Assembly: GCA_964016885.1 (NCBI GenBank) | Contig: OZ024747.1 | Span: 58,094,001 to 58,158,000 of the forward strand | Direction of reading: 5' to 3' | Source: Eledone cirrhosa | Taxonomy: Eukaryota | Length of the DNA stretch: 64,000 bases | Shown: positions 5,953-64,000 of the stretch, piece after piece | Layout: every line of letters starts with the position of its first letter | Position numbering within the stretch: position 1 is the stretch's first letter | The notes under the pieces: generated by a model | Databases searched by the model: none | Told to the model about the DNA's origin: nothing | The model's input: the letters and a program-made list of their open reading frames with translations, nothing else | Translations under genes and position numbers: made by a program

Positions 5953-6648
5953 CACACATGTTAGCATTTATATAAATGAATATTAAAGCCCTACTTATTC
6001 AGTACACCTTTCTCTCAGCTGTCAACCACATACGGATATACATATGTGTATATATATATATAATCCTTATCGTGCCCTTTTCGTATTTTAGTTTTCACAT
6101 GTATTATATAGATATATACAAGTTTGACCATCAGGCAGATAAAGTTGACTATATAAATAATCAATTAAAACGGAGCAAGTTTGGAATGTAGGTTTGAAGA
6201 AAAAATAGATAAATGTTTACAAACGTTTTTCTCCCGCTCTCTCTCTCTCTCTATATATATATGTATATATATATAGGAAAAAGTATGACCCCGCGGGCAG
6301 AGCTCAAGCCGTTTCGACGGCTATTTCTGGACTAAATTAGAACTTTTAGCCTGGTGAATAAATAGCCGAACTTTTCAAGGGCGTACTTCCTTATATGGGA
6401 ATATTGTAGTTGTCAAGAGGATTGGTTAAAATTTGTTGTAAACACAAATAAGTCTATCATGGCATTTGGTGGGAGGTAGGAGTGGGTAAAAACTTGCCTG
6501 TAGAACAATAGGGGAGTGAGTGGAGCGGTCAAGCGTTGAAAGTGATATGTATACAGCAGATTATAAGGATAGTGTATGAAGTGGAGGAGGGAGGTTATAG
6601 AATAGGTAAATCGAATGAGAGTAGGAGACAATAAAAGATAATTGAAGT

Positions 6649-6745
6649 ACCCCCTTGAAAAGTTCGGCTATTTATTCACCAGGCTAAACATTCTAATTTA
6701 GTCCAGAAATAGCCGTCGAAACAGCTTGAGCTCTGTCGTCGGCGT
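6649..6745 (+). ncRNA. type I hammerhead ribozyme in 5' pLTR (U3-A8 core variant; stems partly mutated)
   Basis: CCCC-TTGAAAA-(long stem II CGGCTATTT/AAATAGCCG)-GAAA-stem III-GTC-GGCGT. Confidence 0.65.
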
Positions 6746-6930
6746 CATACGTTTTCCCATTTACCACTCTACTACCCTAAGTATTGAGTACTCTGGTGCA
6801 TTATGGTCCATCTGGTTCCTTACCACAATTGCTTTGTTATTTAGCTCCTATCTCTGTAGTAGAGCACTTTCCGACTCTACCACGCCATATCCTGACTTTT
6901 CCAATCAGCTCAAGTTTCTTCAACCGCACG

Positions 6931-9060
6931 ATGCAAAAACACAACATCGACTTCTCCACCAAGAACATCCCAGTTCCACCGAGAAAACTTTACCTTCGGA
7001 TGCTCACGCAAAAAATCGACCCTTTTGCGAAAAGAATAAGATGGAGAACCTTTTTCTACTATGGATACCGCGACAATCAGGATTTCGACACCAAGGAGAG
7101 ATTCGGATTCAATACCTACAAATCTCCCCCTCCGAACCCTATGCTCTCACCATTCAAGAACGACCTTTTTTGCACCTGGTCAAGAACATTCAATTCAAAC
7201 CCAGACACAACAGATTTCTACAACAACTCCGTAGCAAAATAACAGAGTATGAAAACACCAACGACATCATGGTGCACTCGGACAAAACAGGAAACCTCTA
7301 TTTCGTCAACCCTGACAGATACCACACACTGATCAGGAGCAGCCTAAACTCCACCTATAAAAAGTCTAACCATTCAATTATCGAGGACATAAATCGAGAT
7401 GGACAACAAATTACCTACAGCCTCGGGGTCGCCGACCGCACTGAACCCCAAGACCCATGGACTCCCTACTTCACACTGAAGGACCACAAATCCGACTTCG
7501 ACCGCAGACCATCCATTAGGCATATAAACCCAACGAAGTCGGACATAGGGAGAATCAATAAAAAGATCCTAGACCGAGTTATAGCACAAGTTAAGCTAAA
7601 CGTGTGACTTAGCCTATGGGTCAGCACTCAGGAAGTAATCTCATGGTTCAGGAATATGGCGGACAAACGAGACACATAATTCATCCAGTTTGACATACAG
7701 AGTTACTATGCATCTATTACCTTACCCCTCCTTACGGCCGCCTTGGACTTTGCCGAAACACTCACACCCATCACTGACCAGGAAAGAAATATCATTCTCC
7801 ACGCCAGGAAGAGAGTCCTACTTTTCGACAACTCTAAGTGGATAAAGAGAGCTCCCGACTCCCCCTTCGACGTCAGTATGGGCGCGACGGATCCGGCGGA
7901 GGTCACAGATCTTATAGGATTATTCCTACTATTTAAACTCACCGAAATGTTTCCTGCATTCGCCGGTGGATTGTACCGGGATGATGGGCTCCTCACCCTC
8001 AAAGGGAACAACCCCAGTAGTACAGACCGGGTCCGTAAACAACTAATCAACTTCTTCCGAGACTTGGGATTTAAAATCACACTACAAACGTCCCTAACCC
8101 GAGTCAATTTCCTGGACGTTACCTTTAACCTCCAAAATGCTCTGTACTACCCATACAGGAAACCAAACGACAACATGCACTACATCCACAGCCGCTCTAA
8201 CCATCCTAGAAACATCACCAATAACCTGGTTGAAAACATCTCCCTCCGCATATCTCGTTTGTCCGCTAATAAGCTGATTTTCGACGAACACGCGACTCAT
8301 TACAACCAAGCCCTCGGGCGGAGTGGTTTCCGGGAGGAAATATCCTTTTATCCAGCTTCCCTTAGCGGATCCAGCAGGCGACACCGTCGCTCATGCAACG
8401 TAACGTAGTTCAATCTTCCCCATAATGCCGAGGTGGCAACACCTATCAGGAAAATCTTCTTTAGACTCCTCGAAAAACATTTCCCACTACAACACCGCTA
8501 CCACAACATAATCAACAAAAACACCATGAAACTCTCCTACAGCACCACACCTAACTTCGCACGAAAAATCATCTCCTCAAACATCAACAAAAATCAATAC
8601 CTATGGAAGAAATAACCTAGACATCAGTGGAGAGCCGACCAGGAGGTGTATCTGCCCTGATAGATCTACGTGCCCTCTCAACAACAAATGCCGAAAACGT
8701 AACGTGATCTACCAGTGCAATGTGAGGACGGACACCTCCAACAAAGCTTATATAGGATTAACCGCGTGTGACTTCAAGACCCGGCTCTACCAACACCGAC
8801 ATACTTTCCGAAGCCCGGTTCGGCGACATGCCACTACACTCTCGGGCCACATCTGGGACCTCCAAGATAATAATATAACCTACAATCTCACTTGGAGCTT
8901 ACTGTCCAAAGCTAACTCTTACACGGGAGGACGTCGTCCGTGTAACCTATGCTCGGAGGTAACATTACAAATGTTGTTTTCGAAGGACCAACTCCTAAAC
9001 AAGAAAGACGAACTGGTAACCGCATGCAAACACAGATTGCGTAGGACTTACTCAATAACG
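6931..9060 (+). pseudogene. disrupted PLE polyprotein (reverse transcriptase + C-terminal GIY-YIG endonuclease)
   Basis: ATG 6931 MQKHNIDFSTKNIPVP..RIRWRTFF; RT motifs DKTGN, FIQFDI..YYASI, FDVSMGA.D.AEV..LIG, GLYRDDGL, NFLDVTF, YRKPN..SNHP; GIY-YIG region VIYQC..AYIGLT..FKTRLYQH..CNLC..LN..CKH. Frameshifts near 7170 and 8610; stops at 7605, ~7678 and 8406. Confidence 0.9.
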
Positions 9061-9749
9061 ACCCGGGTGGGTAGACAAGGGCTGATACCCTCCTACTTGC
9101 CGAATAAGTTAGGGGAAACCCCAGCTTACTTAGGTAGATGTATCTCTTTTCTTTTCCTCTTTGTCTTCTTCTTCCCCGTCTCATCCTATCACTTCCTTCC
9201 ACCCCTATTTTCTTCCACGTCTGCTTTTCCCTTTCGCCTACCCCGATGCAGCCCATCGGGCCTCTGTAGCATCAGTTCCCCCACCCCTGTAATTTTAAGA
9301 TAGAATTGGCCGAATACGTTTTACTGACTACGTATAGCAGACGTGTTAAACCCCTTTAATTCTGTATCAGTTCTGGTACTACCCAATTTCTACAAGTTTT
9401 TTTCTATTATCAACTTATTAACCTGTAATTGTAAGATAGCATTGTGATTTTTTTTCATTTCTCACTATCTAATTTTTTTTTTTTCTTCTTTCTATTATCT
9501 TTTATTGCCTCCTACTCTCATTCGATTTACCTATTCTATAACCTCCCTCCTCCACTTCATACACTACCCTTAGAATCTGCTATATACATATCACATTCAA
9601 CGCTTGACCGCTCCACTCACTCCCCTATTGTTCTACAGGCAAGTTCCGCCACACCTACCTCCCACCAAATACTATGATAGACTTATTTGTGTTTACAACA
9701 CATTTTAACCAATCCTCTTGACAACTACAATCTTCCCATATAAAGAAGT

Positions 9750-9846
9750 ACCCCCTTGAAAAGTTCGGCTATTTATTCACCAGGCTAAAAATTCTAATTT
9801 AGTCCAGAAATAGCCGTCGAAACGGCTTGAGCTCTGCCGTTGGGGT
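9750..9846 (+). ncRNA. type I hammerhead ribozyme in 3' pLTR (U3-A8 core variant)
   Basis: Stem I CCCC/GGGG; core TTGAAAA 9756-9762; stem II CGGCTATTT/AAATAGCCG with nested GGCTAAA/TTTAGTC; GAAA 9819-9822; stem III ACGGC/GCCGT; predicted cleavage after GUU at 9841. Confidence 0.75.
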
Positions 9847-10167
9847 CATACTTTTTCCTATTTACCACTCTACTACCCTAAGTATTGAGTACTCTGGTGC
9901 ATTATGGTCCATCTGGTTCCTTACCACAATTCCTTTGTTATATATATATATATATATATATGAATTTCAAAAACAGTTCTGCGTTTTCAGCAACCGGTAA
10001 AACAGTTTAAATACTCCAGTTAATATTATTATTATTACTACTATGATATATATATATATGATATATTTGTTGTTTTGCAATGTTTTTGATATGAAATCGT
10101 GTATTGAAACAAATATTTTTATATTTGGGGTGGGTCATATTGTTATAATATTGCTAGAAATGATAAT

Positions 10168-13647: not shown

Positions 13648-13714
13648 GTGTGTGTGTGTCTGTGTCAAAATAGCTGGAGCTCAGCCGTTGGAGTCTTGAA
13701 TATTTTTATATATA

Positions 13715-13764
<50 letters not shown>

Positions 13765-13899
13765 ATAATACATTTGAAGACTAAAATCCAAAGCGAGCTC
13801 GATAAAGATAAATATATATCAGATACATAAGAACCGTAGAGCAAATATTTACTAAAATAACAGATTAAAGTTTAAGCAAAGAATCGCTGCTTTCACCCT
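13765..13899 (-). mobile_element. PLE-type terminal repeat fragment (family B) in (TA)n
   Basis: Near-identical to 18430-18563 and to the reverse complement of 32210-32320. Carries the 3' half of the family B hammerhead. Confidence 0.7.
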
Positions 13900-15874
13900 A
13901 GCAAATGAGTTTTGCAAGCCATATATATGTGAGTTTATCAGAGGAAATCCATAGAAACCAAATCAGCTACTCCACCGATAGACTACAGCGGACAAAGAAG
14001 CATAACAAACATAAGCATTAACTCCCCTCGTTGTTTGCCCCTACATCAATCACTAAGAATACGACACACAAGTCATTATAGTTACTGTTAAGCAATATAT
14101 CAGTAGTTATAATAACATATCTCCTGTAGTAATGTTAGTATTTACAATGAAACCAATTATAATGATAGAATAAACATAAATTATATAGAGAAACGTCTTA
14201 CCTCTACTTGGCAGGTAATAGGAAGACACAAATAATAGGATTTTGACTTGTAGTTTGGGCAGTGATATAAGGCTGGATAGAATTAGTTAATTTTAGAATG
14301 TTGTCTCAGAACAATATGAGGAAGTGACGTCAAATGGAATCTGTGTGCATTGTGGTGCTGTAATTGGAACCCAAGAACCAAAGAGAGATAAAGAGAGAAT
14401 ATAGAGATAGTATGTTACTGGATTGCAGGACAACGAAATAATTCAGTTCAGTATAACAAGCGAGATGTCTTCGGAATGTATGCCTATGACAACATTTGCA
14501 CGAGTCTTAAGAAAAAGACAGAAAAAGAACTACAAGCACAGAGAACGAGGGACGAAACAGGTTAGATATAAAAATCGACCTCTCTCTTATTATTAAATCT
14601 AACTCACGCAGGTCTATCTTTTTGTGACGACTTGAAACATATTTCATATATCATTGTTTATAAACTGATTCTCTCAAAATTGTGGTAAAACAAAATATAT
14701 TACCCATTTGTCTCAAGGTTTAAATTCAATCTGCAAGTTTGCGACATATTATTAACATTCGTCGTTCTTAAATTAATCTAAAATATTCTAAACATGTCTT
14801 GAACTCCACTTTAACATTAGTCTATTTATATTTTATTACTGCAATTCATCTCTTTTAATTTAATTTAAATTCTTAATCGCACATGTAAAACCCAACATTT
14901 AAATCGTATTTATACGTTTATGTTATTACATAGTACAACATAAATATTTATACAACAGTGCATAATCCATTCGGTTAAATCATCAAACTTGAATTTGGAA
15001 ACTATAGTGAAATTTCGACTACTGATATTTAAGAAATTACTCTTGTTTCAAAATCTTTTATATATACATTATTATATTTTAATACAAGCCTCACAACTGG
15101 AATGTGTGTATATCAAGTAAACCTATGCTACTTCCATGTCATGATTTCGAGCTCACATGATTTATGCGACCAATTTATTTAGGAAGGTAGTGAACATTAT
15201 ATTTCACATAGTTGAGAAGATCGGATCATAGAAAAATCTATGTAAATGTAGGACACATCCATTAAAATCTTAATAAGTTTACAATAACTTAAACGAAAAC
15301 TGACATTTGAAACATTTCAATTTTTAACATCTCTTTTAATTTTTACCCTATATTCTTAGAGAATTTTAATTCTAGACACTTGAAATACAAATTTATACAT
15401 TATGATGAGAAATACTAATACGTAAGTAAATCAAAAATGCAAGACCAGGATACAAACATAGTGTTTGATACTTAAAATTATTATATTTTTTAACTTTTAA
15501 CTTCTGAAGTTCACTATATTTTCAACGGAAAGTCATTTATTTGAAAATGGATACACAAAGCCAGAATTTGAAACCATCAGTCAACTTTCAATTGGTGAGT
15601 ACAACATTTTTTTTTCAAAGCCATATGGGTCTCACATATCAATTCAAATTTTAATTACTACTGCAAGTTATTGTCATCTATGAAAGTCATATTAATGTAT
15701 CGTGACGATTTCGAAGTTAAGCGAAGTTGCCTATTATCAAACTATTCTAGTAACCTTTTGAGGACCAGTTGACTGCACATAACATAATACATAGTTCTGG
15801 AGACAGAGATGATTTCTTCGTATCGCATCAATTTAATGAATTAGAGGACATGTGCAAAATAATGCCATTATGAC

Positions 15875-18416: not shown

Positions 18417-18424
18417 ATAATAAT

Positions 18425-18638
18425 AATAATAATAAATTTGAAGACTAAAATCCAAAGAGGGCTCGATAATGATAAATATATATCAAATATATAAGAACCG
18501 TAGAGCAAATATTTATTAAAATAACAGATTAAAGTTTAAGCAAAGAATCGCTGCTTTCACCCTTAACGGGATCTTCTGAAGATCCCGTTAAGGGTGAAAG
18601 CAGCGATTCTTTGCTTAAACTTTAATCTGTTATTTTAA

Positions 18639-18640
<2 letters not shown>
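18425..18640. mobile_element. family B PLE-type terminal repeat forming a perfect palindrome, with hammerhead core
   Basis: Palindrome ~18514-18640 centred at 18577. Plus strand reads CTGAAGA(18576) TCCC-GTTAA-GGGT GAAA GCA..TGC TT AAAC. Confidence 0.75.
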
Positions 18641-18712
<72 letters not shown>

Positions 18713-25119: not shown

Positions 25120-25497
25120 TTAAGTTAACATTAAGAACCCTACTGTTCTCCTTCTCTGGAATGTCAATTTTGTACCTGTTGCCATTAAGAGCGCCGGTGT
25201 CCTCCATCTTTGCACTATTACTTTTGAAACAGGTGCCATTAAGAGCGTCGGTGTCTTTCATCTCTGTTGTGTCAATTTTGCTCCAGGTGCCATTAAGAGA
25301 GTCAGGGTCCTCCGTCTCTGGAGTGTCTATTTTGCACCAGGTGCCACTAAGAGCTATGCCGCCCTCCATTTCTGCAGTGTCAATTTTGTAGCGGGTGCCA
25401 CTAAGAGCTATGCTGCCCTCCATCTCTGCAGTGTTCAATTTTGTACCGGGTGCCAGTAAGAGCTCAGGTGCCCTCTGTCTCTGGCGTATCTATTTCC
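25120..25497 (-). repeat. 54-bp tandem repeat (~7 units), reading as an 18-aa repeat on the minus strand
   Basis: GCCA(T/C)TAAGAG at 25181, 25235, 25289, 25343, 25397 and (variant) 25452; translation LNGTWSKIDTTEMKDTDA-like. Confidence 0.9.
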
Positions 25498-26796: not shown

Positions 26797-27036
<240 letters not shown>

Positions 27037-27084
27037 GACGTAAAATAAGAAAATTATAAAAATTAAATTACTTACTAAAGTTTC

Positions 27085-27165
27085 ACTCCAACTAATTAAT
27101 TTCTGAAAGGGAATAAACATGGTTTCCGATGGAAAGCACGGAGAAACCTTTCGTCCTCAGGAAGT
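27085..27165 (-). ncRNA. type I hammerhead ribozyme with expanded stem II
   Basis: Minus strand: ACTTC CTGAGGA cGAAAGG..CCTTTCa GAAA TTAATTAG TT GGAGT. Stem I is ACUUC/GGAGU and stem II is GAAAGG/CCUUUC. Confidence 0.7.
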
Positions 27166-27596
27166 TCGTTCTCAGCTAAGTTACCAGGCGATGCGTGGAC
27201 ACAGGGAACTTATACAAAAATAATTCAGTGGATGGAAAAAAGCAAGCGTGGACTAAATTTTAAGACATTGAAAAAATCACTGCCTACTTGGACGGTGGCA
27301 AATTCAAAAGAATCAATCACGTGACATCGAGGTTAATCAGTGAGGAGTGAGGTGTTAAAAAGACAGTGGCCGAGCCATTACTATGAACTATAGTAGCAGT
27401 TTTGGCAAATTTTTGCTCAACAAAATAATTTGGAGTTAATTATAAAGAATTAGTATATCTACCAACATATATATACAAGTGCATACCTATGCTAGCAAAT
27501 ATATAGGTTTGTCTTAGTAACTTTGTGGTTCAATGCAATTATATGAAAGACGTAAAATAAGAAAATTATAAAAATTAACTTACTTACTAAAATTTC

Positions 27597-27678
27597 ACTC
27601 CAACTAATTAGTTTCTGAAAGGGAATAAACATGGTTTCCGAATGGAAAGCACGGAGAAACCTTTTGTCATCAGGAAGT
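27597..27678 (-). ncRNA. type I hammerhead ribozyme with expanded stem II (second copy)
   Basis: Minus strand: ACTTC CTGATGA CAAAAGG..CCTTTCA GAAA CTAATTAG TT GGAGT, with palindromic stem III ACTAATTAGT. Confidence 0.72.
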
Positions 27679-27841
27679 TCGTTCTCAGCTAAGTTATAAT
27701 TTTCTTATTTTACGTCTTTCATATAATTGTTCTGCATCCCCTTGCATTGAACCACAAAGTTACTAAGACAAACATATATATTTGCTAACATAGGTATGCA
27801 TCTGTATATATATGTTGGTAGGTATACTAATTCTTTTTATA

Positions 27842-30937: not shown

Positions 30938-30976
30938 TCTTAACGGCGTTTCGGACAGTAGTTCTTCATCAGAAGA
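30938..30976 (-). ncRNA. minimal type I hammerhead (family C) in a PLE-type terminal repeat (~30800-31100)
   Basis: Minus strand: TCTT CTGATGA AGAAC-TACT-GTCC GAAA C-GCC-G TT AAGA; stem I UCUU/AAGA. Confidence 0.6.
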
Positions 30977-31109
30977 AAAATGAGAAATAAAATAGATTAA
31001 GGAGACGAGCGGGATGGAATTGGAAAAAATGTCTTTGGCGACACCATTAGCTAAGATCTTTCTCTCCCTTATTATGAAGCATTCCCCCAGCACATAAATA
31101 TAATAACAT

Positions 31110-32320
31110 TTTTAATAGAAATACCATTAAAAGGAATATGACGTCACTTTTAGCTTATATCTGGAGTCTAAAAGACAACCACATCCAATATAGGTTACAC
31201 TGGGAGATCCTAGCTAAGGCTAGATCGTATAACGGAAATAAAAGACCATGCGACCTCTGCGCCGCTGAAGCCCTGGAAATACTCTACCCCAATGACCACA
31301 TCTAAAATAAAAGAAATCTGATGCAATTTCGGCTTGTAAACATAAATTGCGCAAAACGTTCCTACATATTACAGCCCCACATTATATCCTAACGGATAGT
31401 ACGAACTATACGCAGATAATCTACGTCTTGGTGTGGTAGCTTAGTATATTTCATGTGTATACCATTGCTTATTTGTATAGGTAAGTATATATTACCTGTA
31501 CGTTTTGTGAAGGTACGTATACATTCGCGTACGTATATTTGCTTGTGTTTGTTATGGGCGTATATATTATATCATATATACAGGTACATGTGTATATGCT
31601 TATGTGTATACGTCAGTTCTGCGTTTGTGTGTATGTCTACTTTGTGTTTTGGTTGTACGTTTAGCGAACATATGTTTATTATGGCGGGTGTGTTCACGTA
31701 TGTATGTGTATGTACGAATATGGATACGTGCATGTATATATTTAATTATTGTTGATTTCAATAACCTCTGTAATTCTTTTACATTATTTTAAACTCTGAA
31801 GCCGAGAATTATTCGTTTTCTTAAATAGAACTTTAGTCTATGACTTCATTTATACAATAAACGTGGTTTTGTCTTTGCATGTATTTATTCTCACGCTCCA
31901 CATAATGACTTATTATCTTCGTTTTTTCCGTTCTTTTCCAGGGAACGTTTCCACGAACCACCTAAATAGAATATTAGTCTAGGACTTCATTTATACCATA
32001 AACGTGGTTTTGTCTTTGCGTGTAATTGTTCTCACCGATGCAAATAACGACGTATTACGTTGGTTTTTTTTCGTTCTTTGCCTGGGAACGTCTCCAGGAA
32101 CAAAAGTATCGTCTTCCTGTCTTCCTCCGGTTGCAACGTTTTTCGAAATATTTTCTTCTGCGTTCATCGATAGATTTTTTTTAGTTTCAGAAGATCCTGT
32201 TAAGGGTGAGTGAAAGCAGCGATTCTTTTCTTAAACTTTAATCTGTTATTTTAATAAATATTTGCTCTAGGGTTCTTAACGAGCTCTCTTTGGATTTTAG
32301 TCTTCAAATTTTATATTATT
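31110..32320 (+). mobile_element. 5'-truncated second PLE: GIY-YIG C-terminal remnant, AT-rich 3' region with 141-bp duplication, family B terminal repeat
   Basis: 31155-31300 reads YIWSLKDNHIQYRLHWEILAKARSYNGNKRPCDLCAAEALEIL, aligning with HIWDLQDNNITYNLTWSLLSKANSYTGGRRPCNLCSEVTLQML at 8850-8975. Duplication at 31820/31961; mutated HHR (CAGAAGA) at 32188. Linkage of all parts into one element is inferred. Confidence 0.65.
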
Positions 32321-34121: not shown

Positions 34122-34125
<4 letters not shown>

Positions 34126-34425
34126 GGAAAACATTAAAATTCTATTTTTCACTCTTAGTACGGCTGATACTTAAATATAAGTATGTATACGTACATACAT
34201 ATATGTATACAGTAGTATGTATATACATACATACTTGCACCCGTATATGGTATCGATGGTTGCTGAACACTGTAAGGTTACTAATTCGGGTTGTTTGTTT
34301 GCAAACAAACCGAGCATTATAGTAAATGTTCGGTAAACCCAGAAGTACATATATATATATGTCTGCATGTATGTTTGTATATACATAGTACTGTACATAT
34401 ATGTATGTACGTATAAATACTTATA
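34122..34425 (-). mobile_element. diverged palindromic relic of the 467-bp retrozyme family
   Basis: TTTCACTCTTAGTACGGCTGATACTTAAATATAAGTATGTATACGTACATACATATATGTATACAGTAG resembles 60881-60965; inverted arms ~34170-34225 and ~34345-34423. Confidence 0.6.
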
Positions 34426-36912: not shown

Positions 36913-37534
36913 ATCTTTGGCTACTGCTATCTCAAGGAATTTACCTTCTAATACCAGTACAAGAACTCTCCCTCCCACAGTCCACAAAGGTCGTCAAATC
37001 CTACTCAAACCATCATCTACACCTCTCACAACACACACACCCACATACCCACCCACTCGAAACCCCATCATTTGCCGCTACTCTCTACGCTATAGAATAT
37101 GTACGGATAGTGGCTGCAAATTCACCCATTTATCTAGGACAAAACGATCTATCCCCACAAACAGCCACCACCATAATACATACTCTAATTTAACACCAAC
37201 ACAACCACCAATAGCTCAAACAAGGAATCCACAAATCTGCCGCTTTTCCCTGCGAGACAGATTGTGTTTAGACCGGGATTGTCCCTTTACCCATCTCCCG
37301 GGGACCCGTCGGACAAATGAAAATAAAATTAAAAATAAAAGCAAAAACAAAAACCATAACCTACATAAAAATAACCACTACCACAGTCACCAACAGTCTT
37401 CTAAACAGGAAAATTCTTCCTCTTTTTTAGCCATAATAAATCATGCAAAAGAACTGGAAAAAAACATTCGAGCTATCACCCAGCACCACCCTCCACTATC
37501 ACCCCACTGCACAAACTCCCATTGCTGCCATTAA
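36342..37534 (+). CDS. LINE ORF1 (Myb/SANT-like N-terminus, polyQ, poly-Thr, two CCCH-type zinc fingers), split by a -1 frame change at ~36785-36880
   Basis: ATG 36342 MANQQKSKQNWSDNEIDILINTW and Q-rich tract; the second frame has CRYSLRYRICTDSGCKFTH and CRFSLRDRLCLDRDCPFTH (C-x8-C-x4-C-x3-H). Confidence 0.7.
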
Positions 37535-40533
37535 CAAACAAACAAATTAACAACACACCAAAACAATTAAAACCATCCACTCTCGCCTCTACATTTTTGC
37601 TTAACGCCCAAGGCATCAGCCCTTCCACCAATACTCAAAAATGGAAGATCAAATTCCTGGAGGACTGGATTGATGTCCATCCAAACCACATCCCTTTCTT
37701 CGTCCTCACTGAAACCCATCTCAGTAACCTCGACTTGGAAGCCGAGGTGAAAGTGAAAAATTTCAAAGCCATCCGTGCTGATCGCGCTGGCAGAAGAAAG
37801 GGCGGGACTGTCATTTATGTCCATAATTCTTTCTCAACAGAGGCTATGAACATATTCACTAATGGATACTGTGAAGCAGTCACTGTATTCAGTCAAACCA
37901 GCAACCTAATAGTAGTTGGGCTCTATAGGCCACCCCAAACGCCTGTACCATGCTTCAAGGAATGCCTCAACAGCATAAAGTGTTTTATCCAAGAGTGTCA
38001 CCCTGACAACATCTTAATGATGGGGGACTTCAACCTCCCCGGAGTTGACTGGTCCACAAACAGCCTGCCACCAGGTTCTTCTGCCTCAACCTCTGACAGG
38101 GAAGTAGTGGAATCGCTTCTTGACTTCATGGATGATTTCTTCCTATCCCAACTGGTGCTCGAACCAACGAGGTGCCACAAAAACGTCCTAGACTTAATTT
38201 TCAGCAATCACACTGACAATATCCACAATATTGCAGTGGAGAAAACTCTACTCTCTGATCATGACATGGTTCTCTGTGATCTGAGATTCCACCGTCCAAT
38301 ATACAAACCCAATGTCATCTCTCCTGTCCATCCGTTTGACGCTATGGATTTCCACAATGCAAACTGGGAAGCGATCAGTCATGATCTTGCACATGTCGAC
38401 TGGTCCTTCACGCACACTCATACACCCACTAACATCAAAAAGTCCTGGCAGACATTTGTGGACACTGTTACAAACATATGTGCAAAACACACCCCATTAA
38501 GAACTATAAACAAATCTAAGAGCAGAATCCCTAGAAATAGAAAAACGCTCATCAGAAAAATTAAGAGAACGAACAAAAAAATCAACAAGCTGAAATACTG
38601 TCAGCAGCAACACATCAACTTGACTGCCATTTCATCACTAGAGATTAAAAAACATAACCTCCAAAACAACATAATGTCCCTCATCAACAATCAGAGAAGA
38701 GCTGAAGAGGCCTGGGCTATTGAGAAGATCAAACTCAATCCCAAAGTGTTCTTTTCATTTGCAAAAAAACACAAAATCACTGGCTCTACTGTTGGCCCTC
38801 TAATTGATGAAAATGGCACTCTTCAAGACAATGCTAAAACCAAGGGTGAGATACTGCAGAAACAATACTGCTCTGTTTTCAACAATCCTGATATGGCCGA
38901 TCTGAGCTGTATCGGCGATGTTACTCCCCATTACACCTTATCGGACATAACGTTTGGCGCCCCTGATGTCTTAGCGGCAATAAAGGAAATCAAGCATAAT
39001 TCAGCAGTAGGTCCCGATATGTTCCCTGCTTGTGTCTTGAAGGCGTGTCAACACCAACTTGCATCTGCTCTTGCCAATCTGTGGCGGAACTCACTGGATG
39101 CTGGATATGTGCCAGAAAACCTTCTATCCCAGTCTGTTGTCCCAGTTTTCAAAAAGGGAAACAAATCCCTTGCCGTGAATTACCGTCCAATCTCACTCAC
39201 CTCTCATATCATTAAGGTATTTGAGAGAGTGGTGAGATCGCGAATGACCCACTTCCTTGAGAGTAACAATATGCTGAACTCCAACCAGCATGGATTCCGT
39301 AATGGAAGGGATTGCCTGACGCAGCTACTGCATCACTTTGATGACATTTTGAGAGCCTTGGGAGAGGGTTCCAACACTGATGTTATCTACCTTGATTTCA
39401 GCAATGCCTTTGATCATAACATTCTACTGAGAAAGCTGTCCAATATTGGTGTCACTGGAAAGCTGCTGCAGTGGATCAAGAGCTTCCTGTCAAATAGAAC
39501 CCAACATGTTGTAGTTGAAGGAGTCAAATCCAGCCCAGCCAAAGTCAGTAGTGGGGTCCCACAAGGCACTGTGTTGGGCCCACTTCTCTTCATCATCTAT
39601 TTTAATGACATCACTGACATCATCAAACACAGCAACATTAAAATTTTCGCTGATGATTCCAAGCTCCAAAAGGTCATCAATGGCGTGGATGACCGGATAA
39701 GCCTTCAGTCAGACCTACTGGCTGTTACCCAATGGGCGGAAAAGAACAACATGTTACTGAACGAAGACAAATTCGAACTGATCCACTTTGGAAAAGAGGA
39801 TGCTCTGAAACTCCCGTACTCCCTTCCCTCCGGGGAAACTCTCGTGGCATCTAACAACATCAGAGACTTGGGAGTAACCGTGGACAGCAACATAAGCTGG
39901 GCCACGCATATAAGCAGCAAAGTTGACATGGCCCGCAGAATGTGTTCCTGGATCCTCAGAACCTTCCAGTCGAGAGATTCCCACACCATTATCCTTCTCT
40001 TCTCTACTTTTGCCCGACCACACCTTGAATACTGTTGTCCACTGTGGTCTCCCCACACGAAACAAAGTATCATGAAACTTGAAGCTCCTCAAAGGGCAAT
40101 CACGAAAAAGATAGATGGCATGTCAGACCTTGACTACTGGGGTCGACTAGAAAACCTGAAACTTTACTCACTCCAACGTCGCCGTGAGCGTTATATTATC
40201 TGCATGATGTGGAAAATGTTCCATCATCACTGCCCAAATGATGTTGGCATCGCCTTCAAGATACACCCAAGGCTTGGGCCCCGTGCTATCCGTCCCATTC
40301 AAAAATCTAAATCGCAACTCATAACAACAATACGGCACAATTATTTCACCTCAATCGGCCCTGCTCTCTTCAACATCACACCAGGACATGTCAAAACAGA
40401 AACTGACCACACAAAATTCAAGAAGTCTTTGGACAAATTCCTCCAAGTAATCCCGGACAAACCACCCACACCCGGATATGTCTCCGCAAACAGTAATTCT
40501 CTTCTCGAATATGCCATGGTGCCCAAATCCTGA
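37405..40533 (+). CDS. LINE ORF2: AP endonuclease + reverse transcriptase (stop-to-stop; no ATG before the APE motifs)
   Basis: APE motifs LNAQG, LTETHL, GLYRPP, MGDFN, LDLIF, SDH; RT motifs [40 protein letters not shown]; C-terminal [10 protein letters not shown] typical of the CR1/L2 group. Uninterrupted for more than 1000 codons. Confidence 0.93.
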
Positions 40534-45960: not shown

Positions 45961-45963
<3 letters not shown>

Positions 45964-46073
45964 CGAAGGAAATGTGGTAAGGAACCAAGTGGACCATAAC
46001 GCACCAAAGTACTCTTCAGTCCAGAATTAGCCGTCGAAACGGCTTGAGCTCAGCCGTCGGGGTCTTATTTGTT

Positions 46074-46078
<5 letters not shown>
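45961..46078. mobile_element. family A pLTR fragments joined in opposite orientation
   Basis: 45961-46014 is the reverse complement of the pLTR 3' end; 46015-46078 is the HHR 3' half, GAAACGGCTTGAGCTCAGCCGTCGGGG. Confidence 0.8.
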
Positions 46079-47386: not shown

Positions 47387-47426
<40 letters not shown>

Positions 47427-47468
47427 ATAATAATAAATTGAAGACTAAAATCCAAAGATAATCTGTTA

Positions 47469-47505
<37 letters not shown>

Positions 47506-50602: not shown

Positions 50603-50607
<5 letters not shown>

Positions 50608-50837
50608 AACAAGTAAGACCCCGACGGCTGAGCTCAAGCCGTTTCGACGGCTAATTCTGGTCTGGCTAATTCAGTGGGCTAATTCTGGACGGCTAATTCA
50701 GTCCAGAATTAGCCGTCGAAACGGCTTGAGCTCAGCCGTCGGGGTCTTACTTGTTCCTATTACCCACTCTACTACCCTAGGTATTGAGTACTTACGTGCG
50801 TTATGGTCCACCTGGTTCCTTACCACATTTCCTTCGT

Positions 50838-53084: not shown

Positions 53085-54055
53085 TAAAATCTCCCTAGTT
53101 TGAATAAGTTGTCATAAGCCCCACATAATTTAAATGTGCCTAGCATGAGTAACGTCCATGAGAAACACAACACATCTGTGTCTCTATTAGCTTTATATAC
53201 TCAACAAATCCAAAAAATCTTCTACCTACATCTTTCATATGCAAAAAGCTAAAGCTGTATTTGTTGCGCTTTTAGTTTTCGTCCCTAGCATCTGAAAGGT
53301 ATCTTGAAACCCACAAGACTTACATCTCCCTAGTAGTGTAAACTGTCATGAGGCCATAGGACTTAAATCTCTCTAGCATGTGTAAAGGGTCATGAGCCCA
53401 CAATACCTAAATCTCCCTAGGATGTGTAAAATATATGAGCCCAAAGGACTTAAATCTCCCTAGGATGTGTAAAGGGTCATGAGACCCACAATACTTAAAT
53501 TTCCCTAGGATGTTTAAAGGGTCATGAGCCCACAAGACTTAAATCTCCCTAGTATGTGTAAAATGTCATGAGACCCACAATATTTTAATTTCCCTAGGAT
53601 GTGTAAAGGGTCATGCCCACAGGACTTAAATCCCCATAGGATACGTAATGGGTCATGAGCCCATAGGACTTAAATCTCCATAGGATGTATAATGGGTCAT
53701 GAGCCCATAGGACTTAAATATCCCTAGGATAAAGCGTCTTGGGCTCCCGAAGACTTAAATTTCTCTATGTTTCTTAAGGCCTCATAAGTTCCACAAGTAA
53801 GGTGTCATGAGACCGAAATGACATAAATGTACCTAGCATGTACAAGGCGCCATAAGGCCCACAAGACATAAATTTCCCTAGGATAAGTAAAGCGCCATGA
53901 GCCTAACAAGACTTCAATCGCCTTAGATTTAGTAAGGTTTCACGTGTCATACACGCCTTAAATGTCCCTAGGATGTGTAAGGCATCATACGTACCACAAG
54001 AATTAAATATGGCTCGATTAAGTACGGTATCACGAGTCCCACAAGACTTAAATCG
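53085..54055. repeat. ~41-bp minisatellite, about 20 degenerate units
   Basis: Unit approximately GACTTAAATCTCCCTAGGATGTGTAAAGGGTCATGAGCCCACAA; most homogeneous at 53310-53730. Confidence 0.9.
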
Positions 54056-54490: not shown

Positions 54491-57400
54491 TAAAACGTTG
54501 GATGCTACCTTTTAGTTATTGGTTCATAACGTTTCTCACCGGAAACGTATTTTGTTTCTGATGAGGTACCTATGCCTGTGAAATAGGGACAAATACAGTA
54601 TTATAATTATTCATATCTTTCTGCTAAATGAAAATCTTTCCGGTGTTGAGTATAAAATTCAACTTACTTTGCTGGAAATAAGCATCTATCATGTACTGGA
54701 ATTAATTTAATAAACTGCTCCAGTCCTTACAGATGTGTGGATCCGGCCTATGAACATTGGAGTATGTTAAACAGATGTAAATGGGAAATATAATCAGTTA
54801 ATTCACTTTCTTAGATTTGATTTCTTAAGCTTCTGCTCAGTTCCAATAAATATTTGTTAATTTTATAACCGTTCAAATATGCACGGAATTCACTAGTACT
54901 TTATCAAACTGTTTAATTATACATACCATGAAGTACAGTACCAGCTACACAACAGAGTTGTTATATAGTTTCTTGTTTGCATATCTAAACATGATAACAT
55001 TTGTAGATGAGATTGGTTTCGTTTAGAACAAATATTAATGAGATCTGGTCACGAGTAATGAATTCCAGAATATCACTGTCGCATTCTCCCCCGATTAAGT
55101 GTAAACATTCTTTAAAGTAGCTGATTTATTATTCAACGACTGTATCCAATATCGACTACCATAGTAGTTGAAACTTGGATAAATCTTGAATATTAATTTA
55201 AAACACATTAAATAAAACTCATCAGATGTGTGTTTCCAACAAATTAGATGACAGGAGTATGGTTATTAGTTAAAGGTGAGCAGTGTATATCTGATAAGCG
55301 AAGTGAAACGTTTCCTGTTTCCACAGTATTTGTGTCTTTGCTAGCTTTACATACTCAACAAATGCAAATATCTTCTACCTACAACTTTCATATTCAAGAG
55401 GCTAAAGCTCTATTTATTTATTTATTGCACTTTTAGTTTTTGTTTGACATTTTCTACTTTTCTTTTCTTTCCGTTTGGTAGATAAAGTGAAGATAATGAG
55501 ATGGAGCTAAAAATAATGCCTCGTTTATCATCTGCTATAGAGACACGGATGTAAGTGGCATCTCCCGAGAATTATTGTTTCTATGGCATTAATAATCAAA
55601 AGCACCGCATCCATCAGTTATCTTTAAACCTAAACATTCAGTTGTTCCCCTGGCTCTTTTTAAGTCATTTAGAATTTCTCCACGACGAATTAGGCAGATA
55701 AAACATAAACGAATCGTATATCTAACTGCCTTTTAGTTCTAAGCAGCATTCAAAGTATGTTATAAACTACATAATCCTTCTATTGAAGTTCCTCTCAAGA
55801 TAGAAAAAGCAAGCTAAGAATGTGCCAGAGCGAAAACAGAATGAACTATATTTGAGAAATATTTGATATATAAAAAGTATTGAATATTCTGTCCTATGGA
55901 AATATTATGATATTATTTATTTATTTTAACTATAATTTTGTTCAATAAATGATAAATATCCCAACAACAAAAGATTCATATTGTAGTTATAATGGAATTA
56001 CTTCAGAGAGCGGGTCGCAAAGAGCGCGACAAATAATTTGAGACAAAGAAATAAAGTCGAGTATGCAGTGTTTGTGCAATTCTGACTGAGTAAAATGACT
56101 TTTCCGCGAAGTAATTGATTTAGTTTCAACACACGGACTCGAATCAAGTCACTTATCAGACAAGTGCAAATTGAGTGATGCATTTAATACGCATACAATT
56201 AGAAAATTACAAATAAAGATAACTTGGTCTTAAAAGAAAGGTTCGGTCCGGCTATTTCAATCGGTCCGGCTATTTCAATCTCTTTTCAGCAGGTGAAAGT
56301 TAGAAATCACCAATATTGTCTGAAAGCAGTGAAGTTATGTTTAACCGGATACATCAACGCATCATAATGGAACTAAAATATCTAAAAGTGATGTGAATCA
56401 CAAAACATTTCCCTACACTTGTATCTTTGATCTTTCTGCTTATCTTTAGTTCATATGATTTCGCAACCTCTTCTATAAACAAGATGCAATAACAATGAAT
56501 ATATTATGTATATAGAATTAGAATAGCGAAAGAAACGAAACACTACATATTTTTTATCTATCTCGAAACAAGGCCATAAAATGGCTGTCAGAAATTTCTA
56601 ATGGCCACAACATGTGAATATTTTGAAAAGAAAATCTGCAAATTCACGACAGGAACGCAACAACGATCGTATAAAAATACGAAGAAGTGTTGATGCCCTG
56701 TTATATATATCTGTCATTGTTCAATGTGAATAGAAAGAGGGTGAATTGGAAAAGGTGTATATAACAGAGTTTAGATTTTGATTCAATTGTTATGCGGAGG
56801 AGAAAACGATTGCTTGCGGTCGCTAAAACAAGATAAACTACTGCAATTTTAGAACACTAGACAGAGGAATAGAAACCTGTAACGATGTATTGGGTAACGC
56901 TGTGAATTGATGGCCATTCTATTAGCTGCACTCTACTACATATGTATAGCTGCCGGGTGTCTTTTTGAGGCATAACAACTACATGCATTTTAAGTGGCAT
57001 CCAATCGTATTTGATGCACACAAGAAATGTTAGTCATCAGATATAAGGAAACTTGACATTAAAAAGAAGGTTAAGGTATTTTTGTATCTTGTTAACCTCC
57101 CCGTAAACATTGGATATTTTATGTTAGTCTGAATTAAAAGAATATTTTATATTCAAATCGACAGAGTGGAAAGAGCACCAGACTGAATGCCTTAAAATAT
57201 ATTTTCTCCATGTATATTCCTACCACGTTATTAGTAGTCATGGCAGTGGTACTGCTTGGTTTAATATCACGCGTTTTCTAATGCTGCCAATAAAATATAA
57301 TTCATGAGATCTGTGCAAGCGTTTGTTTTTGTATCATCAAAATATATCTCAAACTCTTATGGCCTAGCAGATATAACATTATTGCTTACGTAAGAGATAT

Positions 57401-58948: not shown

Positions 58949-59061
<113 letters not shown>

Positions 59062-59708
59062 TGTGTGTGCGCCTGAGTCTTTCTCTCTGTATGAGTGTGT
59101 ACGCGTGTACACATGTGTGTTTCTGTTAAAATTATGATGGATATATCATTCAAAGTGTACAAATCGCTGTCAATATGAATATTGTTTTCTAAATAATATC
59201 TCAAACTAAAATATTATCTGAAGTTTTCTTGATAAAAGATATATAATATAATTGTTATCACATGCGACCGCCACACATGAACAATGAAATATCATCTGAT
59301 ATTCTATTACAAGATAGATACCATTCATTGATAATTTCTTTGTCGAATAAGAGACCTGTGCAGATTTGTTATGATTTTCCATATCTGTTATGACGTTTCT
59401 GGAACATTTTTGATCGTTATTGTATATGATTTGAAAATGAAAAATAGAATCTACTCATTGATAATTGATGTGATGTTGTGCTTTGTGATCACATCTGACA
59501 TATGACAAATGATTATCGATATCTGCCGCCGTCTGATGCGTTTAGTAACAATAGTGGATACTGTTTATGGGATTTACATATTAGTTGAAAGGCAGAGGGG
59601 AAGAAGTGAGCATATAAAGTTAAGTGAGAAATTATAGAATTCATACCTCCTTCGATTCATAGTCGCTCTGACATTGCCTTTGTGCCCCATCTCGCTATAC
59701 ACATATAT

Positions 59709-59883
<175 letters not shown>

Positions 59884-60189
59884 ACGTTGAAAGAGATAGA
59901 ATGTTAAACAATGCAAAATGGACTGTAAGATGAGGTGACGAAATGGAAGTTACCTGGTAATCTTTGTTTTTTATTTTGATGTTGTTCTCTTTTTCTGTCA
60001 AATATTTTGGAACCTAAAAGTCCCTTCTTCAGGGTTTAAGGAACTTACAGTGGATAATGATCGGATTCCTCTCTTTGGTATATATTCTTATTTAAGTTTT
60101 TCCAAGTCGTTTTCAAGCGTTTTGTTGATGGTTATGTCGCTTATATATATATATATATAATCCCTCATCTATAAATGAAAAAACGATCC

Positions 60190-60370
60190 ATAAAAAGTTC
60201 GAGATGCCAGCTGACGCCTCTCTTGAAAATCTACCAACTGAGGATGAGGGTCCACAACCCAACATTTTCTCCCCTCGCTGTACTCGGCTATTCAAAGCAA
60301 AAATTGGCTTAACGAATCGTCTTTGGACAGAACACTCCTTTTTCATCTGTCATCTTTTCATCTAACGTCT
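60190..60370 (+). mobile_element. RTE-clade LINE 3' fragment
   Basis: Reads PRCTRLFKAKIGLTNRLWTEH, a degenerate form of the CPxCxRxFxAxIGLxSHxRTH terminal zinc finger of RTE/BovB, followed by GTCATCTT as in RTE 3' UTRs. Confidence 0.55.
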
Positions 60371-60475
60371 AGCAGCTAGACGTTGAGCTACACTCTAGCT
60401 CACCTTCAGTAATAATATTATATACACATACATAAATATATATATATATACATACATAAATATATATATACGTAC

Positions 60476-60506
<31 letters not shown>

Positions 60507-60519
60507 CATATATATATAC

Positions 60520-60549
<30 letters not shown>

Positions 60550-60550
<1 letters not shown>

Positions 60551-60822
60551 GAGGCACGTGGACTAGTGGTAAGGGTGTTGGACTTACGATCATAATGTCG
60601 TGGGCTCGATTTCTGGGTTGCGTGTTATATTCTTGAGCAAAAACTTAATTTCACGTTGCTCCAGTATACTCAGCTGAAAATGACTACCAGCAATAGCTGG
60701 AGGTTTAAACCTGCGATGGACTGGCGTCCTGTCCAGAGGGGGGTCTTGTACTTTCAGTCGCTTCACGCCATGAAACCGGGATATGCACCGGCCAAATGAG
60801 CCTTCTGGCTTATGACAGACTT
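60550..60822 (+). mobile_element. tRNA-derived SINE S2 (V-domain-like)
   Basis: A box GTGGACTAGTGG, B-box-like GGCTCGATTTC, and CCTGCGATGGACTGGCGTCCTGTCCAG resembling the V-SINE domain (from memory). Confidence 0.75.
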
Positions 60823-61382
60823 TAGACTTTATATATATATATATATATATAAATTGAAACAAAATGAAAACGAAATTTCATTTCTCACTCTTAGTATGGC
60901 ACTTACTTAAATGTAAGTATGCATGTATACGTACATACATATATGTATACAGACGTACAGTAGCATGCACATATATATATATATATACATATGCATACAG
61001 GTACACATACATATATGCACGTATCAGTTTAGCGTATCTTACAAACGAACAAAGCGACGTTAGCGCCGCTAAACTGATACGTGCATATATGTATGTGTAC
61101 CTGTATGCATATGTATATATATATGTATATATATATATATATGTGCATGCTACTGTACGTCTGTATACATATATGTATGTACGTATACATGCATACTTAC
61201 ATTTAAGTAAGTGCCATACTAAGAGTGAGAAATGAAATTTCGTTTTCATTTTGTTTCAATTTATCGTTTTCGGTATGCCTGACCGATTTAACTCACTCAA
61301 TATGCAAATTAGGCTGCTCAGCCGTTAATTTTCATAAGGAAAGTATATACTTTCGAACGTTCAACTATCTGGCAGATGGGTA

Positions 61383-61427
61383 AACGGTGCTGATGATAGC
61401 TAACAAGCTTGAAACTAGTACATCGTT
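61383..61427 (+). ncRNA. minimal type I hammerhead ribozyme
   Basis: AACGGTG CTGATGA T-AGC-TAACAA-GCT-T GAAA CTAG TA CATCGTT: intact core, 7-bp stem I, palindromic stem III ACTAGT, predicted cleavage after GUA at 61420. Confidence 0.9.
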
Positions 61428-61849
61428 CCTGTGTCAGTGTTGAACAAAAAAGGTGACGTGGTTGCCTTAACACCGTATGGCATAAATTCAGGCTGTTCAG
61501 TTTGTTTACAAACGAACAAAGCGACGTTAGCGCCGCTAAACTGATACGTGCATATATGTATGTGTACCTGTATGCATATGTATATATATATGTATATATA
61601 TATATATATGTGCATGCTACTGTACGTCTGTATACATATATGTATGTACGTATACATGCATACTTACATTTAAGTAAGTGCCATACTAAGAGTGAGAAAT
61701 GAAATTTCGTTTTCATTTTGTTTCAATTTATCGTTTTCGGTATGCCTGACCGATTTAACTCACTCAATATGCAAATTAGGCTGCTCAGCCGTTAATTTTC
61801 ATAAGGAAAGTATATACTTTCGAACGTTCAACTATCTGGCAGATGGGTA

Positions 61850-61894
61850 AACGGTGCTGATGATAGCTAACAAGCTTGAAACTAGTACATCGTT
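61850..61894 (+). ncRNA. minimal type I hammerhead ribozyme (second copy)
   Basis: Identical to 61383-61427; predicted cleavage after 61887. Confidence 0.9.
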
Positions 61895-62604
61895 CCTGTG
61901 TCAGTGTTGAACAAAAAAGGTGACGTGGTTGCCTTAACACCGTATGGCATAAATTCAGGCTGTTCAGTTTGTTTACAAACGAACAAAGCGACGTTAGCGC
62001 CGCTAAACTGATACGTGCATATATGTATGTGTACCTGTATGCATATGTATATATATATGTATATATATATATATATGTGCATGCTACTGTACGTCTGTAT
62101 ACATATATGTATGTACGTATACATGCATACTTACATATATATATATATATATACATGTACTGACACAAGAGCAAGAATGAGGGGCTCATTCTACTGACAC
62201 GGCTTTACAAATGAGGCCATTGCATAATTGCAAATGAGTCGAATATTATTATTTATATTCGAAAAACTCAGATTACATTTTTATATATATATATATATGC
62301 ATGTTTGTATGTATGTGAGTGTGTGTGTGTATATATATATATGGTGTATTACACTTTACAATAAATGTGATTCTTAACATATGTAAGATACACATTTATT
62401 TTAATGTAATGCATATTAATATTACTCTCAACGTCTAGCCCAGTCCTGTGCTGTTTAATTTAATGTGTCGTCTGGTTTACATGTAATCGTTCATATATGT
62501 ATATGTATATATAAATATGTGTATGTGTGTGTGTATGTGTATACATACATCCATATATAAGTATATCACATATATGAATGAACATATGTATGTATATATA
62601 TATT

Positions 62605-62639
<35 letters not shown>

Positions 62640-63218
62640 TAATGTGAGAGATTTTGCATTTCTATGTGTGTGTTAGTCTGTAACTATGAGTATGTACTGT
62701 ATGTGATTATATGTTCAGTCGAGTATTAGATTGTGTAACTGTTAAGAATAATCATTGTTGATAATTCATCTTAGAGTGTAATATATGATATCTTATATGT
62801 TGATGTACATGATTACATCTTTTATACTGAATCTAAATTAAATTACATGCCACTAAATTTGAAATGTTCTCAACCTACGTAATTTATGGTCCTGACAGTC
62901 ATGTCAGTCCTGTCTAACAGCGGTGCCACTGCAAAAACATGCGCTTCATACGGATGCCCAATTTACTAAAATGAACAGTGAAATCAACTTCAATTTTCAC
63001 ACAACGCCTTGAAATAGTATGGACACATTGGTTGATATACTCCAAGAAGAATTCGTAAGAGAAAATAAATAGAAAGCATAATGTCTGAAATAACGTTCCA
63101 CCTATGTATGCCTGATCAAGCCTATCCTGTATCTAAATAGCAACCGTGAACATGTTTAAAATCTCCTGCAAATAAACAAAATATATATATATATTTCTCA
63201 TACGTTATTACACTTATA

Positions 63219-63413
63219 GACGGTGGATTGTGGATTGGCAGTATTGGTAGAGGGTCGGACGCCATGCTTTGATGCATAGAGTTACGGCCCTTGCCATTCT
63301 GAGTTCAAATCCCGCCGAGGTTAACCTTTGCCTTTCATTCTTACGGGGTCTATAAAATAAAGTACCAGTAATGCACTGGTTAATTCCTGGTCTTGTGCCA
63401 AAATATAGAAACA
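63219..63413 (+). mobile_element. young SINE S1 with 15-bp TSD
   Basis: TSD GTTATTACACTTATA at 63204-63218 and 63414-63428; B box GAGTTCAAATCC. Confidence 0.92.
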
Positions 63414-63516
63414 GTTATTACACTTATACCACTCGTTGTTTTTCTTGTCTGCAAGAACGAAATCATTTAGGCGCATCTTACAATATGCAGAGATATGGTT
63501 TAGCTCTTCTAAAAAG

Positions 63517-63576
<60 letters not shown>

Positions 63577-64000
63577 TATTCTTGTTTTATTGTACTATTT
63601 ACATTACTATCTGACAAATAATAGAAATTTTGAAGACATTTTCAGTGAGTTGTACACAATAACTTAAATTATTTATTCACATATACTTCTCTACCTTTCG
63701 TCGATTTCCATCGAAATCAACCCTGACTTTCATCTCTATCTGAACGATAACGTTTGTACTAAAGATATATATCTATATCAATTTTCATTCGTACACTTTC
63801 GTTATGATATAATTTGCTTTCATTACTAATCTATAAAGATTTAACGACATTTATATACATTTCAATCAAAGAGATAAAATAACACAAATAATGTCTCCAT
63901 CTAATAATTCATGTTTGAAGTTAATTTCGATGCTGGTTTTGATTTGGTTCACACCACTAATCTTCTTGAAAATAGATTGAATATATCAAACTCTCAAATG

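Follow-up and report, generated by a model that had tools for sequence, protein, structure and literature searches.

Architecture of the insertion

The insertion lies within a 64,000-nucleotide stretch of Eledone cirrhosa DNA, hereafter the window, and is composed of a head-to-tail array on the forward strand (61039–62136) preceded by a shorter copy in the opposite orientation. The array follows an exact 467-bp period over 1098 bp, as found both with Tandem Repeats Finder and by a direct scan, and holds 2.35 copies of the unit with 100% matches and no indels; its 631 duplicated bases are free of mismatches. It is 5′-truncated at 61039 and closes at 62134–62136 with what is here called the short 3′ end. 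The inverted arm, likewise 5′-truncated, occupies 186 nt on the reverse strand (60849–61034), its outer end being the long, tailed 3′ end, and is the reverse complement of 61067–61264, from which it differs by a single 12-nt deletion within the TA tract and by no substitution. This TA/TG-rich, self-complementary tract (61077–61200, forward strand) is found in each unit. At the inversion joint there is a 4-nt filler (61035–61038), which repeats bases located 12 nt upstream within the arm. The insertion is bounded by (TA)n on both sides, at 60830–60851 on the left, where the end of the element itself reads AT and leaves the boundary uncertain by 2–3 nt, and at 62135–62153 on the right. The original prediction of about 2.3 identical 467-bp units, a 5′ inverted arm and (TA)n on both flanks is thus accurate in each of these points.

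The unit has a GC content of 0.36, its longest sense frame on the circle amounts to 48 codons, and it encodes no transposition protein, nor the reverse transcriptase (RT) plus GIY-YIG frame of an autonomous Penelope-like element (PLE). The earlier statement that there is no coding capacity therefore holds for the sense strand and needs amending for the other, where an ATG frame of 132 codons and low complexity is present at 61318–61716, of a length reached by 14 of 1000 shuffles. A 1-nt deletion crosses this frame in other copies of the family, at 29% of the depth in sequencing run X1 and also in run X2; as a gene the frame was rejected, and it is probably incidental.

The array insertion is real, and it is young, with 817 aligned bases lacking any substitution as compared with approximately 94–96% identity inside neighbouring PLE-type insertions, in agreement with the recent insertion originally proposed. 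Perfect identity would be equally expected if a 1.35-unit or single-unit PLE-type insertion had very recently grown by local duplication (unequal crossover), or if the copy number were an assembly error; satellite-like local amplification has been proposed for retrozymes (bioRxiv 2026.07.22.740005), and no locus-spanning piece is found among the run contigs aligned to 61670–62280. Such later growth is nevertheless improbable, since the array and the arm are equally free of substitutions and therefore both date from the insertion, and since a second, unrelated family at 27033–27837 shows the same combination of partial tandem and inverted arm at about 96% identity.

Staggered ends and integration footprint

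When read in the hammerhead sense, the insertion terminates on either side in an element 3′ end. The right, short end corresponds to unit position 61200–61202, about 218 nt upstream of the predicted ribozyme cut site, whereas the left, long end corresponds to 61262–61264, about 156 nt upstream of it; the two are thus approximately 61 nt apart on the unit. The intervening segment (61203–61264, forward strand), found at the insertion's left end and not at its right, constitutes a tail of about 61 nt between two putative reverse-transcription start sites. The window contains one diverged relative of the family at 34123–34421, which consists of two inverted arms in (TA)n, is truncated before the hammerhead, and ends at the same long (left) and short (right) 3′ sites with a tail of 57 nt; among the non-self matches in the window its tail ranks first, with a local score of 46 against 28 for the next. 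In this sample of two loci, the 3′ ends of the family look fixed rather than permuted, which goes against the permuted end points initially expected.

Among eight double-ended (TA)n insertions in the window, chosen by eye and with a ninth near 32.3 kb left out, six have a measurable tail (57, 61, 80, 80, 95 and 117 nt), the arms of the remaining two being too short to align. Partial tandems, an inverted 5′-truncated copy, a one-sided tail and (TA)n targets are described as hallmarks of PLEs (PMC8557442), and the 467-bp array displays an inverted 5′-truncated copy, a partial tandem, a tail at one end and a microsatellite target. A purified PLE protein is reported to cut AT-rich DNA in vitro, to extend both strands, and to use two internal start sites whose spacing equals the tail (PMC11167929), behaviour that explains why the array has its arm, its stagger and its target. 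We therefore consider it very probable that the array was put in by PLE-type insertion. The original prediction had noticed the arm, but had missed arm, tail and (TA)n target as a pointer to Penelope-like machinery.

In the corresponding model, PLE protein would nick both strands of the (TA)n tract and prime cDNA from each; the long internal site, approximately 156 nt upstream of the ribozyme cut, would serve as the start for one cDNA, and the short one, approximately 218 nt upstream of it, for the other; and the two cDNAs would meet 5′-to-5′ to give the inverted arm. All three steps are proposed with high confidence.

Penelope-like elements and other neighbours in the window

A broken Hydra-type PLE on the forward strand (6276–9938) serves for comparison. 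It encodes an RT followed by GIY-YIG, has an inverted arm, a pLTR and an 80-nt tail, lies in (TA)n, and thus has the same layout as the array insertion. The RWR, DKT, CxCX5C, CxxC and CxH motifs are present amid frameshifts and stop codons, and the Hydra-clade motifs found correspond to those given in section 11 of PMC8557442; the assignment is based on motifs, Atlas leads and tblastn, and Pfam searches of the PLE fragments together with six homologues returned nothing at useful scores. The 467-bp unit has no detectable similarity to the ends or pLTR of this one Hydra-type PLE family of the window, and the element is therefore regarded as a comparator and not as a proven partner. The Hydra clade is said to carry a hammerhead; in contrast, the type I descriptor finds no intact one in this copy.

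Coding-free end fragments related to the pLTR of this PLE are present at 45963–46075, 50606–50837, approximately 26800–26928 and approximately 13660–13695, all in (TA)n, and two of them are double-ended, pairing a short end with a long one. The element at 27033–27837 (reverse strand) is older and non-coding, with a 512–513-bp partial tandem, two degenerate hammerhead-like cores, an inverted arm, a 117-nt tail and a (TA)n target, and is unrelated in sequence to the 467-bp unit. A third family comprises short double-ended or single-arm (TA)n insertions at 18417–18642, 47424–47473, approximately 13760–13900 and approximately 32190–32320, and its 18.4-kb copy has a perfect palindrome at the joint and a 95-nt tail. 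A GIY-YIG fragment similar to PLE endonucleases is found at 31129–31284 (forward strand), adjoined by a hammerhead-like core at about 30940–30980 (reverse strand), and another degenerate hammerhead-like core with paired flanks is located at 54550–54605.

A SINE-like sequence with a tRNA-like head recognised by eye (60550–60829) lies directly upstream of the array insertion, which occupies the (TA)n that terminates this sequence; a read-through transcript would form an RNA hairpin of 186 bp involving the arm. The SINE-like repeats of the window presumably resemble octopus ones. An unbroken stop-to-stop frame of 1042 codons with AP endonuclease and RT domains at 37405–40533 looks like an intact LINE ORF2; its closest named match, at 62%, comes from Argonauta hians, which is compatible with an octopod host but does not prove one. 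Degenerate minisatellites with 54-bp and 44-bp periods lie at 25148–25495 and 53282–53730, respectively.

The hammerhead motifs

The array contains two type I hammerhead motifs on the forward strand, at 61383–61427, with the core starting at 61390 and a predicted cut after A61420, and at 61850–61894, with the core starting at 61857 and a predicted cut after A61887. In both, stem I has 7 bp including one G-U pair, as originally described except for the nature of that pair, and continues beyond a small bulge; stem II consists of a U-U mismatch followed by 4 bp; and stem III is formed by a 6-nt palindrome, again in accordance with the original description. In a monomer, the 2-bp stem III would have to be closed by a loop of 2 nt. 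None of the 12 invariant core positions is altered. The core had been called perfect, which is correct for these positions and incorrect for the G10.1-C11.1 pair, which is replaced by the U-U mismatch in both motifs.

The canonical type I hammerhead is described as having 12 invariant core positions, a helix I of about 6 bp, a helix II of 4 bp and a short palindromic helix III, and the minimal form as having a helix II of 7–8 bp, a helix I of 4–5 bp and no helix III (PMC4209133). The helix sizes and invariant core found here agree with the former, apart from the missing G10.1-C11.1 pair, and do not agree with the minimal form; judged from its sequence, the hammerhead is canonical-shaped and not of the minimal PLE type, and the term minimal, used at first for the hammerheads of this class, does not fit the helix sizes as given in that source.

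The type I descriptor matches these two sites and no other within the 64-kb window, and has no match in 200 block-shuffled windows. The Rfam match is weak, with Hammerhead_HH9 at 18.5 bits against a gathering score of 52 (E 0.022), and across 59000–64000 none of 132 Rfam matches attains its gathering score. Those ranked highest are to microRNA models and fall on TA tracts; they were dismissed as spurious and arising from the TA/TG-rich self-complementary tract.

In the energy model, the double hammerhead of a two-unit transcript gains 10.8 kcal/mol over a pair of monomer hammerheads, while the predicted minimum-energy fold of the same transcript hides the core and is a further 4.4 kcal/mol better than the double hammerhead. 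The hammerhead is thus predicted to need a dimer and to be slow.

Predicted RNA structure and family variation

Cleavage at the two sites would release a 467-nt monomer (61421–61887), the candidate circle. Its predicted circular fold has an energy of −152 kcal/mol, with 67% of bases paired and a z-score of −10 relative to 60 shuffles; with the TA tract removed the z-score is −4.4 and none of 100 shuffles folds as well. These values bear on whether the locus holds a retroelement at all, or a hammerhead-like motif that arose by chance within a fold-back artefact or a DNA-level, MITE-like inverted repeat. The Rfam match below the gathering score and the self-complementarity of a TA-rich unit by composition alone would suit such a coincidence, yet it is very improbable, given the empty shuffled windows, the two ends that are staggered and do not form terminal inverted repeats, the diverged relative at 34123–34421 with the same layout, and a structure signal that persists after removal of the TA tract.

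The variation of the family was followed in sequencing runs. Of 24 listed runs, none of them on record as RNA, 20, in 15 studies, contain part of the unit and 14 contain half of its words or more. Four runs were aligned at 82% likeness to one unit plus the right flank (61670–62280, skipping 62030–62166). This alignment shows no accumulation of ends and speaks neither for nor against fixed 3′ ends, and an unoccupied target site is not seen. Run X1 yielded 6079 contigs matching the unit (1061, 1682, 2435 and 901 by likeness band), and the 467-bp family is accordingly large, varied and dispersed; together with the relative at 34123–34421 this substantiates the dispersed family that had been anticipated. 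The right flank is itself repeated, so the depth ratio of unit to flank is unusable for copy number. X14 gave 12 shallow contigs with the alleles of X1, and X2 gave five contigs that lack the family variety seen in X1; a shallow one of 470 nt matches 61670–62029 over 359 bases with one 1-nt gap and no other letter, and may represent either RNA from an active master or trace DNA. Raw reads of run X24, which has the same organism label as X10, one of the runs containing the unit, have no match in 1938 million letters, a zero that does not amount to a test. Horizontal transfer across organisms was considered and set aside, as only X1 among the four aligned runs has a deep and varied family, and trace DNA of a high-copy repeat is a simpler reading of the shallow runs than a wide host range. 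Exact family patterns have no occurrence in metagenome_contigs or viral_contigs, and the eight loci returned by a looser pattern share no similarity beyond the motif and were attributed to chance.

A position of the unit was counted as a variant site if a different letter reached at least 4% in X1. In the circular fold, which is derived from this very copy, 15 of the 20 sites are unpaired against an expectation of 35%, the share of unpaired bases among the covered positions (binomial P = 3 × 10⁻⁴), none of 359 rotations reaches 15, and four of the five paired variants break their pair. The minus-strand fold leaves 14 of the 20 unpaired, and the test accordingly does not tell the strand. Family variants thus avoid positions predicted to be paired, which suggests that the RNA structure of the 467-nt unit may be under selection. 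Within the hammerhead, variants occur at N7 (42% of depth), in loop II (52%), at the outermost stem I base (43%) and at the G-U position (5.5%), and none falls on the 12 invariant core positions, where approximately 0.7 would be expected, a difference that is not significant.

Mechanism and choice of template

Taken as a whole, the array is most likely a PLE-mobilised retrozyme. The leading overall reading, which we regard as reasonably likely, is that of a non-LTR retrozyme acting as a non-autonomous PLE, with a self-cutting dimer and a circle as the likely template. The original class call, a young non-LTR retrozyme with a dimer-type hammerhead, agrees with every sequence-level feature tested. 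In the proposed scheme, the two hammerheads would cut as a double hammerhead via the palindromic stem III; such dimer cutting is probable on the folding model. A host ligase would then close the 467-nt monomer, and the long cDNA would run 2.35 times round one circle, and these two steps are only slightly more likely than not.

The non-integer array had been taken as the footprint of reverse transcription around a circle, but the same array would be expected from an uncut multimer. PLE protein is reported to start internally on uncut linear RNA, ribozyme mutants insert normally, and hammerhead cutting is dispensable for insertion in vitro, where uncut RNA is the main substrate (PMC11167929); a non-integer array is therefore no proof of a circle. 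The same PLE-mobilised element could accordingly have been copied from an uncut linear multimeric transcript of a tandem source locus, with the hammerhead as a weak motif or a passenger and with no circle needed. Such a template would be in line with the U-U at 10.1-11.1 and the competing inactive fold, with the report that only one of nine Xenopus retrozyme dimers tested was cut in vitro (bioRxiv 2026.07.22.740005), the other eight remaining uncut, and with Chlamys non-autonomous elements that have no hammerhead and also give multicopy head-to-tail insertions (PMC8557442). Several observations make it rather unlikely all the same. The units are identical over 631 bases including the slippage-prone TA tract, as repeated reading of one circle gives, and copies of the family vary whereas the units at this locus do not; the hammerhead variants seen are the tolerated ones, a weak argument; and circles were obtained from the retrozymes of coral, mussel and axolotl alike (PMC7229834).

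Relation to known elements

Metazoan non-LTR retrozymes have been described as tandem repeats of 150–450 bp with type I hammerheads, for which PLEs were named as likely partners (Cervera and de la Peña 2020, PMC7229834). A 2020 review states that retrozyme repeats show no motif revealing the partner (PMC7761336), while a recent preprint reports units of 51–972 bp and ties retrozymes to PLE pLTRs by homology and co-occurrence (Li, Clavereau and Pollet 2026, bioRxiv 10.64898/2026.07.22.740005). The present element resembles these retrozymes in its non-coding head-to-tail unit measuring a few hundred bp, its 36% GC, the single type I hammerhead per unit with two complete motifs in tandem, the well-paired predicted circle and the PLEs in the same genome stretch. 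At 467 bp it slightly exceeds the range of the 2020 study and lies within that of the preprint, and to call it large, as was done at first, is not justified by these published sizes. It differs in its TA/TG tract and in the inverted arm and tail, which are absent from the main-text accounts of insertions in these two sources, and here both cutting and circle are predictions, whereas circles have been demonstrated in coral, mussel and axolotl (PMC7229834). Compared by features, the very short palindromic helix III recalls axolotl HHR_Amex1 and helix II, with a U-U mismatch at its base, recalls HHR_Amex2, both of them predicted to need a dimer; an axolotl retrozyme hammerhead with U-U at this position is reported to cut and to be circularised (PMC7229834). 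In the present motif, unlike in the axolotl ones, both weak features fall together.

With the EN+ PLEs, above all those of the Hydra clade that target (TA)n (PMC8557442) and Poseidon PAc (PMC11167929), the insertion shares the partial tandem, the inverted 5′-truncated copy, the one-sided tail between two start sites, the AT-rich microsatellite target and the lack of a readable target duplication. In contrast to them, the unit has neither an RT nor an endonuclease frame, its tail is about 61 nt as opposed to 30–40 nt, and its hammerhead is canonical-shaped while theirs is of the minimal pLTR type. The Chlamys MRC1-like elements are similarly non-autonomous PLE derivatives with multicopy head-to-tail insertions in microsatellites, but belong to green algae, mostly have no hammerhead and target (CA)n or (C)n (PMC8557442).

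The retrozyme class and its link to PLEs are already published, and the point added here is the integration footprint; the literature searched, mostly non-subscription, yielded no paper on tails at retrozyme insertions. The same literature, covering PMC7229834 and the 2026 preprint by their main texts, contained no cephalopod or octopod retrozyme, in line with the original remark that the family is undescribed in cephalopods, and the main text of an Octopus vulgaris repeat paper treats PLE families with no mention of hammerhead, ribozyme or retrozyme (PMC13282606). A view of how retrozymes insert has been missing so far, and the 467-bp copy shows the PLE signature directly. It names two candidate start sites, offers a substrate for asking which template, circle or uncut multimer, is favoured by a PLE enzyme, and probably extends retrozymes to octopods. 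We tentatively raise the further idea that the locus might be a fresh and complete record of a PLE enzyme copying a ribozyme-made RNA circle, with this haplotype as a currently active master. If a circle was indeed copied, the insertion would be a direct footprint of animal retrozymes being carried by PLE machinery in circular form, in this case within an octopod.
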